Part shown: in pieces, positions 10,234 through 14,525 of the stretch | Layout: every line of letters starts with the position of its first letter | Numbering within the stretch: position 1 is the stretch's first letter | Assembly: GCA_017304135.1 (NCBI GenBank) | Contig: JAFLBB010000007.1 | Location: 7,404-71,403, forward strand | Reading direction: 5' to 3' | Length of the DNA stretch: 64,000 nt | DNA from: Acidobacteriota bacterium | GTDB taxonomy: Bacteria > Acidobacteriota > Terriglobia > Bryobacterales > Bryobacteraceae | Translations under genes and position numbers: made by a program | Notes under the pieces: generated by a model | Databases searched by the model: none | What the model was told of the DNA's origin: nothing | The model's input: the letters and a program-made list of their open reading frames with translations, nothing else

Positions 10234-12054
10234 ATGAGACTAGCACTAGCCATCGGAAGCTTCCTCATCCTCGTGGTGCACGGACTGGTGTTCTACAAAC
10301 AGTTCTTCCACGCCTGGGAACGCCACCAGAGCGCTTACTTCGACCAGGCCCGCGGGCTGGCCAAGAGCGAAACCGAGCGCGCCGCCGTCACCGGCCGCAG
10401 CCCGCGCATCGAGCAGCTCATCGTCACCAGCTTTGGTGAAACGCGCGTCGATCGCTGCACGACATGCCATATCTCCAGCGACGATCCTCGCTTTGAAAAA
10501 TACGCCCACCCGCTCAAGACCCATCCCTACTCAGCAGCCATGGGCGACGTTCAGAAAAACGGCAAATGGGAGCGCCGCCATAAGTTCTCCGACTTTGGCT
10601 GCACGGTGTGCCACGACGGCCAGGGCCGCGGCCTCAAGCCCGAGTACAGCCACGGCGAGGACCACTACTGGCCCGACCCGCTCCTCGGCTACGTCGCGCA
10701 ACATGGCTGGCGCAAGGAGTTCGTCTCCAAGCTCAAGGGCCGCGAATACATGGAAGCCAACTGCGCCCAATGCCACACGGAGGACAACTTCGCCGGCACG
10801 GCCACGGTGCAGCGCGGCCGCCAGCTTTTCTTCTCCACCAACTGCTATGGCTGTCACCGCATCGAAGGTCTCTCCGACGGCACGCTCGGCCCCGACCTCA
10901 CCGAGGTGGGCAAGAAGTTCAAGGTCGACTATCTATGGGAGTCCATCGCCGATCCGCGCGCCAACTCGGCGACCTCGGTGATGCCGCAGTTCAAGCTTTC
11001 CGAAGCCGACCTGAAAGCGCTGGTCATCTTCCTCAAATCGCGCAAGGGGATGAACTTCTCGGAAACCGAGATCCAGCGCTACCGCGCCAAGCTCACCGGC
11101 GGAGCTGAGCTCATCCAGGCCACCATCAAACCGGTGGAGATCACAGCCAGCCAGATGTTGCAGCAGGGCCAGAAGCTGGTTGAGGACCGCGCCTGCATGG
11201 CCTGCCACAAGCTCAACGCCAGGGACGGCGGCATCGCGCCAGACCTGAGCTATGAGGGTCTGCTGAAAGACGAGTCCTGGATCCAGGAGCACTTCGCCAA
11301 TCCGCGCAGCGTGGTGTCGGACTCCATCATGCCGACGTTCCGCTTCACGGCCGACGAGTTCAAAGCCATGTCGGCGTATCTGGCCAGCCTCAAAACCGCG
11401 CCGGCGCTGGCCAGCGGCGCCGACGCCTACAAGGCGCTTTGCCAGCGCTGCCACGGCGACAAGGGCGACGGCCACGGCGAAATCGCCATCTACCTTGACC
11501 CCTACCCGCGCGACCTCACCAAGGCCGGGTTTATGAACTCGAAGCCGATGGAACGGCTCACACACTCGATTCAGAACGGCGTTGCCGGAACCTCGATGCC
11601 CGCCTGGGGCAAGTTGTTGAACGAGGCGCAGGTGAAGGGCGTGCTGGAGCACGTTCTGACCACGTACACCAAGACGCCACGGCGCGAATTGAAAGCACGC
11701 AAGGTGCCCACGGCGAATCCCGTGGCCATGAGTCCTGCCTCGGTCACGCGCGGCGAAGCAGTGTTCGTGCAACGCTGCGCCGGCTGCCACGGACGCAAGG
11801 CCGACGGCAAGGGACCGAACTCGCTCGACATCCTGCCCCGCCCGCGCAACCTGCGCAACTCAGCGTTCGTGCACAGCGTGAACGATGAGCGGCTTTTTGA
11901 CTCCATCCTCTACGGCGTCCAGGGCACGGCCATGCCGCCCTGGATCGACTATGGTCTCTCCAACAACGACGTTGGCGATCTCGTGAACTTCATCCGCGGC
12001 ATCAATCCGCAATCGAAAGGAAACCAGCATGCAAGAGCAATTGAGCCGCGCTGA
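10234..12054 (+). CDS. heptaheme c-type cytochrome subunit of the bc complex, with a CcoP-like diheme C-terminal module
   Basis: Seven CxxCH motifs: [52 protein letters not shown]. The last two carry the CxxCHG..G.G signature typical of CcoP/class-I domains. N-terminal TM anchor. AAGGAGAG Shine-Dalgarno upstream. Confidence 0.85.
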
Positions 12055-13426
12055 GGTTGCCGGCGCATCCGCTCCCTCCGGAGCCATCGTCCACGAAGAC
12101 CTCTCGGCAAAGTGGTTCCTCGTCAGCGCCGTCAGCTACTTCTTCATCGTCGGCATTGTCGCCCTGGTCATCGCCGCGAAGTTTGTCTGGCCCGATCTGA
12201 TGGGAACGATCGCGCCGCTCAGCTACGGCCGGCTGCGTCCGCTGCACGTCAACGGCATGCTGTTCGGCTGGTTGCTGGCGGCCGACATGGGCCTCACTTT
12301 TTATCTCATTCCGCGCCTGTGCGGCGTGAAGTTATGGAGTGAGAAACTCGGTCTGGCCACGGCGGGGCTATGGAACGTCATCATCCTCTCAGCCGTTGTG
12401 TGCCTGCTGATGGGCTGGAACCAGGGGCTCGAATACGCCGAGTTGCCGCTGGCGCTCGACATACTCGTGGTCGTCGCCTGGCTCATGTACGGGGGCAACC
12501 TCTTCATGACCATCTCGCAGCGCAAGTATCCGGCCATGTACGTCTCCATCTGGTATGTGATGGGCACCATCGTCTGGACGGCGTTCGTCTATCTCACCGG
12601 CAACTTCGCCGTGCTGTTCACCACCGGCGTCAACCAGGCCAACCTGAACTGGATGTACGTCCACAACGCCGTCGGCCTCATCTTCACGCCTGTTGGACTG
12701 GCGCTCGCTTACTACTTCATCCCGCGCTCGTCCAACACACCGCTCTACTCGCATAAGCTCTCCATGATCGGCTTCTGGTCGCTGGCATTCGTGTACGTCT
12801 GGACCGGCGCCCACCACATGCTGCACGGGCCCATCTCACAATGGCTGCAGACCATCTCCATCGCCTTCTCGGTGATGCTGCTGATTCCGGTTTGGGCCGC
12901 GGTCTACAACTTCTTCGCCACCATGCGCGGCCAGTGGCACCAGCTTCGCGAAAATGTACCGCTGAAGTTCCTCATGTCCGGTGTCGTCTTCTACCTGCTC
13001 ACCTGCTTCCAGGGGCCGATGCACAGCCTGCGAGCGGTGAATGCCATTGTCTCGAAGACCGACTGGATCCCCGGCCACGCCCACATGGCCGTGCTCGGCG
13101 CGTTCAGCTTCTTCGCCATCGCCGGCACCTACGCCGCGCTGCCCAAGATGTTCGGCAAGCCGCTGCACTCGGACTCGCTCGCCAACTGGAGCTACTGGAG
13201 CTTCATGATGGGCGGCCTGGGCTTCTTCGTCACGCTCTGGCTGGGCGGTTTCTGGCAGGGCTGGCAGTGGAACAACTGGGCCATCCCGTTCATCGATACC
13301 GTCGTTGCGCTCAAGCCGGTGTGGCTGGTGCGCTTCTTCTCCGGCATCCTGATGTTCCTGGGCATCGTGCTCTTCTCCTATAACGTACTCGCCACCGCCC
13401 TTGGCGCACGCGAGCAGAAAGCGTAA
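12029..13426 (+). CDS. ccoN: cbb3-type cytochrome c oxidase subunit I
   Basis: 465 aa heme-copper oxidase superfamily protein with 12 or more TM helices (…[11 protein letters not shown]…[13 protein letters not shown]…). Immediately followed by ccoO. Confidence 0.9.
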
Positions 13427-13444
13427 GGCACAAGGAGATTTCCC

Positions 13445-14014
13445 ATGCTGAGAAAAGCAGACAATAGCGCCTCCTGGGCCGTCGCCGCTTCGCTCGTCCT
13501 CTTCTCCATCGGCGGCATCCTCACCACCGTGGTGCCGCCGCTGGTGGACAGCTCGTGGGCCAAGCCCTTCGAGAACTCCGACCCCGCCAAGGGGCCAACG
13601 GGCAAGCTGACGCAACTGAATGAACTCCAGTTGCAGGGCCGCGCCATCTACGTCCGCGAAGGCTGCTGGTATTGCCACACACAACAGACGCGCACGCTGC
13701 TGGCCGACACCAAACGTTCCGGCTGGAAGGGCGTCGATTCGCCCGTCTCCACCCCCGACGAATTCGTCTACGACTCGCCGCACCTGTTCGGCACCAAGCG
13801 CACCGGGCCTGACCTGTCGCGCGTCGGCGGCAAGTACGACGAGCAATGGCACCGCACCCACTTCCGCAACCCGCGCGACCTCGTGCAGGGTTCCATCATG
13901 CCGCCCTACCCGTGGCTGGTGGAGAACCCGCAGGAGTTCAAAGCCATCGTCGCCTACATGCAGTCGCTCGGCCGCGCCAAGAACTGGCGCCCCAACGAAG
14001 ATTACGAACAGTGA
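13445..14014 (+). CDS. ccoO: cbb3-type cytochrome c oxidase subunit II (monoheme)
   Basis: N-terminal TM helix and a single CWYCH heme motif. Length and position are typical of CcoO/FixO. Confidence 0.9.
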   Translation: MLRKADNSASWAVAASLVLFSIGGILTTVVPPLVDSSWAKPFENSDPAKGPTGKLTQLNELQLQGRAIYVREGCWYCHTQQTRTLLADTKRSGWKGVDSPVSTPDEFVYDSPHLFGTKRTGPDLSRVGGKYDEQWHRTHFRNPRDLVQGSIMPPYPWLVENPQEFKAIVAYMQSLGRAKNWRPNEDYEQ

Positions 14015-14022
14015 GGAACGCC

Positions 14023-14202
14023 ATGACTGACTACACCTATCCGAGCGTCTATCTCGCCTACTTCTTCTTCGCCCTCATGGCCGGACTCGCCGTCTACTTC
14101 TGCGTCCGCTCGGCGCGCGACGGCTACTGGGGCGAGCATGCCGAGGATCCCAAGTATACGGTGTTCGACGACGACGAGCATAACGAAAGGAGCGCGTCAT
14201 GA
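14023..14202 (+). CDS. CcoQ-like small single-TM protein (59 aa)
   Basis: MTDYTYPSVYLAYFFFALMAGLAVYFCVRSARDGYWGEHAED…: one TM helix and an acidic tail, at the ccoQ position between ccoO and the ccoP-like gene. Called by position and size only. Confidence 0.4.
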   Translation: MTDYTYPSVYLAYFFFALMAGLAVYFCVRSARDGYWGEHAEDPKYTVFDDDEHNERSAS

Positions 14203-14525
14203 GTGACTCCACCAAGACGCCGCCCGCGGGCGGCCACGAGGAGTTGAAGGAGTACGCCGGCGGCTGGATGACCGAGCGCAAGGGCACCGACGCGCCGGCC
14301 TTCCTCAAACTCGCCTTCCCGATCATCGGGCTGTTCGCGACCGGCTATCTCGTCGTCTACATGTACGGCGAGGTGGCGCATGAGGACCGCGGCGCCCTCG
14401 TGCAGAAGTTCAACGAAGTCACGCAGACCTCGCCCACGCTGATGTATGCCGTGGCCGCCATGGCGCTGGTCTACGTCATCCTGCTTGTGTCGTTCGTCAT
14501 CCGCCAGTTCAAAGAGGAAGAGTAA
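14199..14525 (+). CDS. CcoP N-terminal-domain (FixP_N-like) membrane protein lacking heme-binding domains
   Basis: 108 aa, two TM helices, no CxxCH. GHEELKEYAGGWMTERKGTDAPAFLKLAFPIIGLFATGYLVVY aligns by eye with the conserved G-IEEYDNPLPRWW-(TM) segment at CcoP N-termini. AAAGGAG Shine-Dalgarno upstream. Confidence 0.45.
   Translation: MSDSTKTPPAGGHEELKEYAGGWMTERKGTDAPAFLKLAFPIIGLFATGYLVVYMYGEVAHEDRGALVQKFNEVTQTSPTLMYAVAAMALVYVILLVSFVIRQFKEEE

Follow-up and report, generated by a model that had tools for sequence, protein, structure and literature searches.

Complex III/IV superoperons exist. Here we analyzed a 64,000-nucleotide stretch of contig JAFLBB010000007.1 from an Acidobacteriota bacterium of the Bryobacteraceae (the window), in which genes for a Rieske/cytochrome b complex run through the gene of a membrane-anchored heptaheme cytochrome c (hepta_c) into genes for a cbb3-type oxidase, with a heme-less protein of 108 amino acids (p108) encoded at the ccoP position. 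Canonical CcoNOQP oxidases (P. stutzeri, 3MK7; Rhizobium fixNOQP) resemble this locus in CcoN, in CcoO and in the gene order N, O, a small protein with one transmembrane (TM) helix, then a putative FixP_N-type protein; ccoG, ccoI and a ccoS-like open reading frame (ORF) are also present in the window block. The window differs in that p108 has no heme domains, has an extra TM helix and is missed by FixP_N models, and in that CcoO is short (189 amino acids) and both CcoN and CcoO score below the equivalog cutoffs. According to Ducluzeau 2008, as cited in PMC8407424, CcoNO forms the universal core of these enzymes and many phyla have no CcoP. A FixP_N-diheme CcoP is likewise missing from the fused CcoN-CcoO-diheme and CcoO-diheme oxidases (Nitrospina-type; our loci L060, L064, L066, L071, L073, L075, L080 and L083), whose diheme part was equated with subunit III by Lücker et al. 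(PMC3578206). Their dihemes belong to the same cassette family as the C-terminus of hepta_c, but are covalently attached to CcoO, whereas in the window the diheme ends the cytochrome of the bc complex, and the only heme c on the oxidase polypeptides is that of CcoO.

On the side of the supercomplexes, native bc1-c4-c5-cbb3 assemblies with bound relay cytochromes have been described in Pseudomonas (PMC10556555). The P. aeruginosa assembly (8SMR) and the engineered R. capsulatus CIII2CIV share with the arrangement predicted for the window a path from quinol to O2 via bound c-type hemes that lie between a Rieske/cytochrome b complex and a cbb3 oxidase (PMC10556555). They use separate c1 and c4/c5 (or cy) cytochromes and a full CcoP encoded by unlinked genes; in the window a single heptaheme protein would replace c1, the relays and the CcoP hemes, and all genes lie in one block. 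The anammox complexes Kustd1480-1485 and Kuste4569-4574 resemble the window in their types of subunit: they join a b6-type Rieske/cytochrome b to a multiheme cytochrome c with a TM anchor and to an FeS/FAD oxidoreductase subunit for NAD(P), the proposed acceptor of bifurcated electrons (PMC12954380), of which the GltD-like protein of the window is a candidate counterpart. Their terminal partner is an HAO-like octaheme protein or unknown, whereas that in the window would be a cbb3 oxidase. The nearest solved fold of the C-terminal cassette is that of the Kuenenia diheme cytochrome in the Kustc0457/Kustc0458 complex (6H5L chain B), a soluble partner of an HAO-like enzyme, in contrast to the cassette, which is part of a membrane-anchored heptaheme bc subunit.

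The block is tightly packed on the + strand, from about 8.2 to 21.2 kb, and its families were assigned with Pfam and NCBIfam. The Rieske [2Fe-2S] subunit (8411..8905; PF00355, E 5.7e-14, with b6f-type Rieske models nearest) is followed by a 440-residue cytochrome b (8902..10224; PF00033 and PF13631, about E 1e-42) of the b6 type with a subunit-IV-like C-terminal half; its N-terminal and C-terminal halves match NCBIfam ExtP and ExtQ, respectively. Read from the translation, the helix-D histidines of this cytochrome b are 14 residues apart, a b6-type spacing, no cysteine is visible at the heme cN position (..PLYTLGLG..), and the subunit-IV-like half reads APWY in place of the expected PEWY. The contiguous gene for hepta_c (606 amino acids, 10234..12054) encodes the TM-anchored multiheme cytochrome of this Rieske/cytochrome b unit, whose cytochrome b matches b6, ExtP and ExtQ models. 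The oxidase begins with CcoN (12029..13426; PF00115, 309.7 bits), the catalytic subunit of a divergent cbb3-type (C-family) enzyme, which scored 330.6 bits against TIGR00780, under the cutoff of 583. Next come the monoheme CcoO (13445..14014; PF02433 FixO, 145 bits; one CxxCH), a 59-residue one-TM ORF at the ccoQ position (s59, 14023..14202) and p108 (14199..14525). CcoN and CcoO occur together with CcoG, a P1B-type ATPase and a FixS-like ORF, and thus form a cbb3 core. The core junctions measure -4 (Rieske/cytochrome b), +9, -26 (hepta_c end/annotated ccoN start) and +18 nucleotides, and s59 and p108 meet in an ATGA overlap; overlapping and abutting genes are consistent with co-translation of one assembly. 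Besides hepta_c, CcoO and one shadow-frame ORF, no CxxCH-bearing ORF was detected in the 64-kb window, and no canonical CcoP was found elsewhere in the window or its flanks.

Analysis of hepta_c bore out the seven CxxCH motifs that the original prediction had counted in the 606-residue translation; they lie at residues 75, 123, 177, 204, 321, 403 and 515, behind an N-terminal hydrophobic helix (residues 1-23). More than 1,200 homologues were retrieved. All seven motifs are invariant in homologues down to 33% identity, exactly seven hemes were found in 52 of 52 full-length relatives, and the seven motifs cannot be a product of chance. Residues H97, H116 and H140, and M250, M366, M455 and M567, are invariant over the same range, a pattern of conservation that fits three putative bis-His hemes followed by four probable His/Met class-I domains. 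The first part of the protein (residues 1-189, 10234..10800, + strand) comprises the TM anchor and a triheme region (CxxCH 75, 123 and 177), probably bis-His, for which H97, H116 and H140 are candidate distal ligands; this region gave weak c3/c7/MtrC-domain-like Pfam matches, and its pLDDT in the full-length AlphaFold2 model, below 50, is too low for a fold assignment. The middle part (residues 190-379, 10801..11370, + strand) consists of two CcoO/SoxX-like class-I monoheme domains (CxxCH 204 and 321); these domains, the fourth and fifth, each match positions 102-142 of the FixO profile (E 6e-8 and 3e-9), and SoxX was matched with E 1.3e-14. The C-terminal diheme cassette (CxxCH 403 and 515) occupies residues 380-606 (11371..12051, + strand).

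To place the window among related genomes, one genome per species was surveyed, giving 80 loci (L numbers) that were annotated with local profiles. hepta_c and CcoO occurred together in 47 of the surveyed genomes. The order s62-Rieske-cytb-hepta_c-CcoN-CcoO-s59-p108-GltD-(DsbD2)-CcoG-CcoI, which starts with a 62-residue ORF (s62), was identical in about 40 acidobacterial loci, drawn from five or more classes or orders (Holophagae, Bryobacterales, Blastocatellia, Terriglobales and Chloracidobacterium). As a core, Rieske-cytb-hepta_c-CcoN-CcoO was also kept in Planctomycetota, an unclassified 'delta-proteobacterial' metagenome-assembled genome (MAG), Anaeromyxobacter and Kiritimatiellota/Victivallales. 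In every surveyed locus where the contig permitted checking, hepta_c adjoined Rieske/cytochrome b. Six loci from Desulfuromonadales, Geothermobacter and Syntrophus (L051-L056) carried hepta_c-Rieske-cytb as a unit, with both ccoN and ccoO missing from the surrounding ±8 kb, and the hepta_c of these units retained all seven hemes and the C-terminal cassette (113-118 bits, collinear). Because these oxidase-less units keep the seven hemes and the cassette, hepta_c is the cognate cytochrome of one Rieske/cytochrome b clade and not an oxidase-derived add-on. Its presence in loci that have no nearby oxidase marks it as an older subunit of the bc complex, one that was combined with a CcoP-less oxidase.

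The original prediction had read the two C-terminal hemes as the diheme module of CcoP, relocated onto the bc cytochrome. The cassette does consist of tandem His/Met class-I heme c domains, with CxxCH at 403 and 515, the invariant M455 and M567, two PF13442 domains and a confident two-domain predicted model. The CxxCHG..G.G signature cited for the last two motifs is present, but it is generic: the cassette motif reads CxxCHG..G.G.GP..PxPRN..G..GT.MP.W, and the signature is the consensus of its 144 nearest relatives and of the whole cassette family, so it was rejected as a CcoP diagnostic. An exhaustive cassette search of a library of 1.84 billion representative proteins returned 10,349 matches, the best 150 of which were heptaheme orthologues and many multidomain cytochromes. 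The FixP motif occurred in none of these best 150, no CcoP was found among the 144 nearest relatives in this library, and FixP_N was absent from the 25 Pfam families listed for the best 112; the nearest relatives that are not heptaheme proteins bear only the name 'c-type cytochrome'. The PxPRN element was not seen in three canonical CcoP sequences from fixNOQP/ccoNOQP plasmid loci.

Profile and structure comparisons gave the same picture. Against the CcoP model TIGR00782, the C-terminal 227 residues scored 55.4 bits (cutoff 179.95), collinear with both heme domains over model positions 107-280 of 285, and generic monoheme families scored similarly; whole hepta_c reached 86.7 bits in three stretches, still below the cutoff. 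The N-terminal TM helix of hepta_c gave no FixP_N match in Pfam scans. In a phmmer search of the PDB an anammox diheme cytochrome ranked top, with CcoP chains placed among c552, cL and ACIII cytochromes, and the best structural match of the two-domain fold was 6h5l_B from Kuenenia and not CcoP, in agreement with Foldseek using the full-length model. We also compared diheme modules in an all-versus-all phmmer matrix with the window cassette as reference. This analysis revealed scores of 117-210 bits for other heptaheme proteins and 76-99 bits, collinear, for dihemes attached to CcoO in fused oxidases; canonical CcoP dihemes, at 25-28 bits, were the most distant group, and many unrelated multiheme cytochromes scored 100-150 bits. 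The expectation that the heme domains would lie nearer to CcoP than to other class-I cytochromes therefore failed. The sixth domain of hepta_c matched domains 1 and 2 of CcoP about equally well, and so there is no domain-order orthology signal. Taken together with the seven hemes already present in oxidase-less units, these data do not support the proposed relocation: hepta_c was not made by transplanting canonical CcoP heme domains, and the cassette is a promiscuous diheme unit that was already part of this bc-complex cytochrome. It is nevertheless a plausible electron-entry module for CcoO, because cassettes of the same kind are joined to CcoO in other cbb3 oxidases that lack CcoP.

The second protein of interest, p108, was found as originally described: 14199-14525 encodes 108 amino acids with two TM helices and no heme site, at the ccoP position. 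In the window its gene is preceded by ccoN, ccoO and a one-TM ORF of CcoQ size. Its hydrophobic segments span about residues 34-56 and 77-105, it contains no cysteine, and an AAGGAG ribosome-binding site is present. It is a real gene: its homologues form over 200 clusters, from Bryobacterales, Holophagaceae, Geothrix and Mesoterricola, and many of its positions are invariant. The N-terminal motif needs one correction, in that its conserved core is EYAGGW.TERKG..P.FLK and the histidine of 'GHEE' is variable. All direct FixP_N tests failed. The Pfam FixP_N hidden Markov model (HMM; gathering score 24.9 bits) gave no match to p108 at E <= 0.1, and matched only 3 of 66 members of its family, at E >= 1.6. 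No match was obtained with NCBIfam TIGR00782, the p108 family HMM matched no CcoP chain at E <= 10 among all PDB chains, and comparison of p108 with three canonical FixP N-termini by hhalign gave 1.5%. BLASTP against canonical CcoP and CcoQ gave one collinear, insignificant match (E 0.03 in a six-sequence database), which was not relied on. The alternatives that p108 is a CcoQ, or is related to s59, s62 or some other TM anchor, were rejected with hhalign values of 1-3%.

A link to the CcoP anchor emerged through intermediates. A home-made three-sequence FixP_N HMM was scanned over all ORFs of the window and the loci, and its best matches were small ORFs directly after ccoO or fused oxidase genes. 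Two of these are stand-alone ORFs directly after fused CcoN-CcoO-diheme oxidase genes: one of 58 amino acids (L060:3588-3764) scored 31.4 bits with Pfam FixP_N and passes the 24.9 cutoff, and one of 75 amino acids (L073:9423-9650) reached a sub-threshold 14.7 bits (E 0.024). In L060 at least, 'CcoP' thus occurs in nature as two pieces, an anchor on its own and a diheme joined to CcoO. The motif in front of the TM helix is graded from the canonical FixP_N (H.WDGI.ELN.PLPRWW) through L060 (RHAGIQERDGRIPLWL), L073 (ESAGIAERKGSVPIWL) and L043 (SVREGRIPLFLKL) to p108 (EYAGGWMTERKGTDAPAFLKL), with the p108 register E18-Y19-A20-G21-G22-W23..E26..P33 aligning with H-x-W-D-G-I-x-E..PLP. Thus p108, encoded after ccoO and s59, carries a FixP_N-type cytoplasmic motif ([WY]-[DA]-G-x-x-E ... 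P) just before the TM helix.

Further intermediates were a family of 60-70 residues with one TM helix, encoded after ccoO in Planctomycetota, Anaeromyxobacter and others (the short form). FixP_N was the best or only Pfam family for the 65-70-residue ORFs after ccoO in non-acidobacterial heptaheme clusters (E 0.007-0.35). A profile built from three such ORFs retrieved about 100 short-form clusters from a 5.8-billion-sequence database, and in the same database the short-form profile also reached two-TM proteins of 103-109 amino acids (E 5e-11 to 2e-4). Of 83 short-form members, 69 matched PF14715 (best E 5e-6), the next family matching 16 members, and the short-form HMM matched the stand-alone FixP_N ORF of L060. 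By hhalign, the short form gave 98.7% with the p108 family (E 4e-16, spanning p108 residues 8-77), 86% with canonical FixP N-termini (E 5e-6) and 95.8% with FixP_N plus the L060 and L073 ORFs; merging p108 with the short form gave 94.5% against the latter set, and six controls (s59, s62, the hepta_c and CcoO TM anchors, CcoQ and reversed FixP_N) gave 0.1-3.2%. p108 has one TM helix more than the short form, and both have the periplasmic loop motif G[DE]...LV..[FLY]N..T, which in p108 reads G[DE]..H..RG.LV..FN. These alignments point to p108 as a heme-less remote descendant or relative of the CcoP anchor (FixP_N), visible only through intermediates, so the view that it keeps the CcoP N-terminal membrane domain survives as a transitive homology. 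Taken by itself, the direct HMM test would have led us to reject this homology wrongly, because only the intermediates reveal the link.

No protein combining FixP_N with heme domains was found in the window or in 81 loci. Given the free FixP_N ORF of L060 and the sub-threshold ORF of L073 beside CcoO-diheme proteins, the FixP_N anchor and the diheme hemes are therefore separable modules in nature. Of the 47 loci that have both hepta_c and CcoO, 39 carry p108 or the short form immediately 3' of ccoO; two loci end at a contig edge and six differ, giving 39 of 39 among informative loci outside Kiritimatiellota. Kiritimatiellota, Victivallales and Verrucomicrobiota versions of the block carry a 48-residue one-TM ORF (L045-L047, L049, L059 and L062, at about 11.6-11.9 kb in each; consensus ..ETT.EIKQGHA.[IV]GKFN..); hhalign values of 34% with the short form and 5% with FixP_N+ make its relation to them ambiguous. 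At the ccoQ position, s59, with a C-terminal PKY.F and an acidic tail, matched nothing in the Pfam and NCBIfam libraries and is kept 3' of CcoO across acidobacterial loci. Similar PKY.F one-TM ORFs follow CcoO-diheme fusions in a Bryobacteraceae MAG (L075:9035-9217) and in Paraburkholderia humisilvae (L083:9046-9312), and together with s59 they may represent a family that stands in for CcoQ in non-canonical cbb3 oxidases. The same Bryobacteraceae MAG holds a second type of CcoP-less cbb3 cluster, in which a triheme CcoO-diheme fusion comes after CcoN (L075:6412-9038); both CcoP-less solutions therefore coexist within the phylum.

Directly after p108 lies a gene for a GltD-like NAD(P)H/FAD/[4Fe-4S] oxidoreductase of 644 amino acids (14528..16462, + strand; PF07992, PF14691 and two Fer4 domains; NCBIfam PRK12771, 435 bits). 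In Acidobacteriota this gene comes after p108; in Planctomycetota, Kiritimatiellota and Nitrospirota it lies ahead of Rieske wherever that part of the locus is present (L039, L045-L050, L057, L059, L061 and L062). It is kept in oxidase-linked loci and absent from the Desulfuromonadales units. By analogy with the anammox Rieske/cytochrome b complexes, the GltD-like protein is a candidate cytoplasmic subunit, a hint of a possible NAD(P) link in the acidobacterial complex.

We favor, at a probability of roughly 60%, a conserved bc-heptaheme-cbb3 superoperon in which hepta_c functionally substitutes for the CcoP hemes. Its gene order suggests that the Rieske/cytochrome b complex and the cbb3 oxidase are directly wired. 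A b6-type Rieske/cytochrome b quinol oxidase would have hepta_c as its own cytochrome subunit, and CcoN, the short CcoO, s59 and p108 would make up a minimal cbb3 oxidase. Electrons would pass from quinol through the Rieske 2Fe-2S center and the seven-heme chain to the CcoO heme c, heme b and heme b3/CuB, with neither a soluble cytochrome c nor a heme-bearing CcoP in the path; the C-terminal diheme would do the job of the CcoP diheme of canonical enzymes, and p108 is predicted to keep the structural role of the CcoP anchor on CcoN. Supercomplex formation, this electron path and the choice of the heme domain that docks on CcoO are what we infer from the genes. Several observations weigh on the other side. 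Because L051-L056 have the same heptaheme protein without ccoNO, the cassette is not specialised for the oxidase and could pass electrons to soluble or other partners, and soluble multiheme cytochromes without known role (100-150 bits) are at least as similar to it as the oxidase-attached dihemes. In the six Kiritimatiellota-type loci the 48-residue ORF takes the place of p108, and p108 alone gave only 14% probability in a direct comparison with FixP_N, so its link is transitive. Finally, cbb3 transcripts of T. roseus and A. capsulatum were low or undetectable in the microoxic conditions tested (PMC8407424), leaving physiological use unclear. An alternative is a pair of co-regulated but separate complexes, in which hepta_c reduces soluble or lipid-anchored cytochromes, CcoNO with s59 and p108 takes up their electrons at CcoO, and adjacency reflects co-expression. 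This reading, possible though rather unlikely in our estimate, draws on the hepta_c-Rieske/cytochrome b units of Desulfuromonadales, Geothermobacter and Syntrophus with no oxidase genes within 8 kb, on the wide occurrence of the diheme cassette in apparently soluble cytochromes, and on the view of the CcoNO dyad as a minimal functional core (Ducluzeau 2008, in the form cited by PMC8407424). It does not account well for the position of hepta_c directly 5' of ccoN, strict across phyla and with overlapping reading frames, for a conserved block that holds no soluble cytochrome c gene, or for a seven-heme chain that far exceeds what reducing a diffusible carrier needs.

A literal domain swap, in which a FixP_N-diheme CcoP was split, its heme domains moved to the C-terminus of the bc cytochrome and its TM stub was left in place, would explain why a putative FixP_N homologue sits at the ccoP position, why the C-terminal 227 residues are collinear with both heme domains of the CcoP model and why the end of hepta_c coincides with the beginning of ccoN. 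We consider it very unlikely, given the 55 bits against a CcoP cutoff of 180, canonical CcoP dihemes that are the farthest in the matrix at 25-28 bits, a sixth domain without preference between CcoP domains 1 and 2, and a two-domain fold that matches 6h5l_B and not CcoP; all seven hemes are, moreover, already in oxidase-less bc clusters, and the module was therefore not acquired together with the oxidase. An anammox-type bifurcating complex would send one quinol electron via the heptaheme chain to cbb3 and O2 and the other via the b hemes to the GltD-like protein, reducing NAD(P)+; the oxidase, as exergonic sink, would cover the cost of reverse electron flow. Conservation of a GltD-like NAD(P)/FAD/4Fe-4S protein in the block across phyla speaks for this scheme, as do the Kuenenia complexes that combine a multiheme cytochrome c with an FeS/FAD NAD(P) subunit, for which the mechanism was proposed (PMC12954380), and the Kuenenia cytochrome that is the best structural match of the cassette. 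We nonetheless regard both the bifurcation and the role of the oxidase as its sink as unlikely: even for anammox bacteria, bifurcation to NAD(P)+ is unproven, a GltD-like gene is missing from the Desulfuromonadales units without an oxidase, the GltD-like protein is likened to Kuste4570/Kustd1483 by subunit type, and it could equally serve copper or heme handling in cbb3 assembly, beside DsbD_2, CcoG and CcoI. The most far-reaching form, an obligate hard-wired quinol:O2 supercomplex with one heptaheme protein replacing c1, the relays and the CcoP hemes, a split CcoP, and bifurcation between O2 and NAD(P)+ via the GltD-like protein, seems to us improbable; if true, such a bifurcating supercomplex would be the aerobic equivalent of what has been proposed for anammox Rieske/cytochrome b complexes.

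The remaining genes of the block encode likely maturation functions and flank the core on the + strand. s62 (8232..8420), the first gene of the conserved block, is a one-TM ORF and a CcoS/FixS-like assembly factor candidate that matched Pfam FixS with E 6.6e-4 (19.8 bits, under the 23.1 cutoff); it lies 5' of Rieske in nearly all acidobacterial loci, a candidate cbb3 maturation factor heading bc genes. Downstream of the GltD-like gene are a DsbD_2-family membrane protein of 236 amino acids (16470..17180; PF13386, E 1.2e-47), present in most loci, the CcoG/FixG accessory protein (17164..18519; PF13746, PF11614 and TIGR02745 at 255.9 bits, which does not reach the cutoff of 316.7) and a CcoI-like copper-translocating P1B-type ATPase (18704..21178; E1-E2_ATPase, HMA and ATPase-cat_bd), the last gene of the conserved block. 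An Rrf2-family regulator gene (7768-8241) precedes the block and is not conserved at the same position in L001; a tRNA-Lys (CTT, 7095-7170) lies in the 700-nucleotide gap 5' of it. Farther upstream, tandem paralogous ORFs on the - strand (4355-5626 and 5636-6985; 423 and 449 amino acids) share the motif ..SANDK[IL]Q.ALIG.GGMG.., and the second has a twin-arginine-like N-terminus (SRRRFLQSSAAGAAF). Promoter and terminator scans gave matches no more frequent than in shuffled sequence.

In the searchable literature we found no description of a heptaheme cytochrome linking Rieske/cytochrome b to ccoNO, of the unknown cco gene as a cryptic FixP_N homologue, or of an anchor/diheme modular pattern across oxidase types. 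Anchor and diheme are fused in Proteobacteria; in L060 the diheme is on CcoO beside a free anchor (with a sub-threshold anchor in L073); and the window represents a third arrangement, with the diheme on the bc cytochrome and p108 as the putative free anchor. This modular pattern bears on the old question of the origin of CcoP. Through its conserved NAD(P)-linked flavoprotein the block may also connect to the bifurcation model of anammox Rieske/cytochrome b complexes, itself unproven. From the block we further predict a bc-cbb3 supercomplex that is natural, genetically linked and wired by a single seven-heme protein; the block occurs in abundant but biochemically little studied phyla of soil and sediment (Acidobacteriota, Planctomycetota, Kiritimatiellota and Myxococcota). 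Annotation pipelines call CcoP 'absent' in such genomes and may score the carriers as lacking a complete high-affinity oxidase, while our analysis suggests that their oxidase is complete in a different way.

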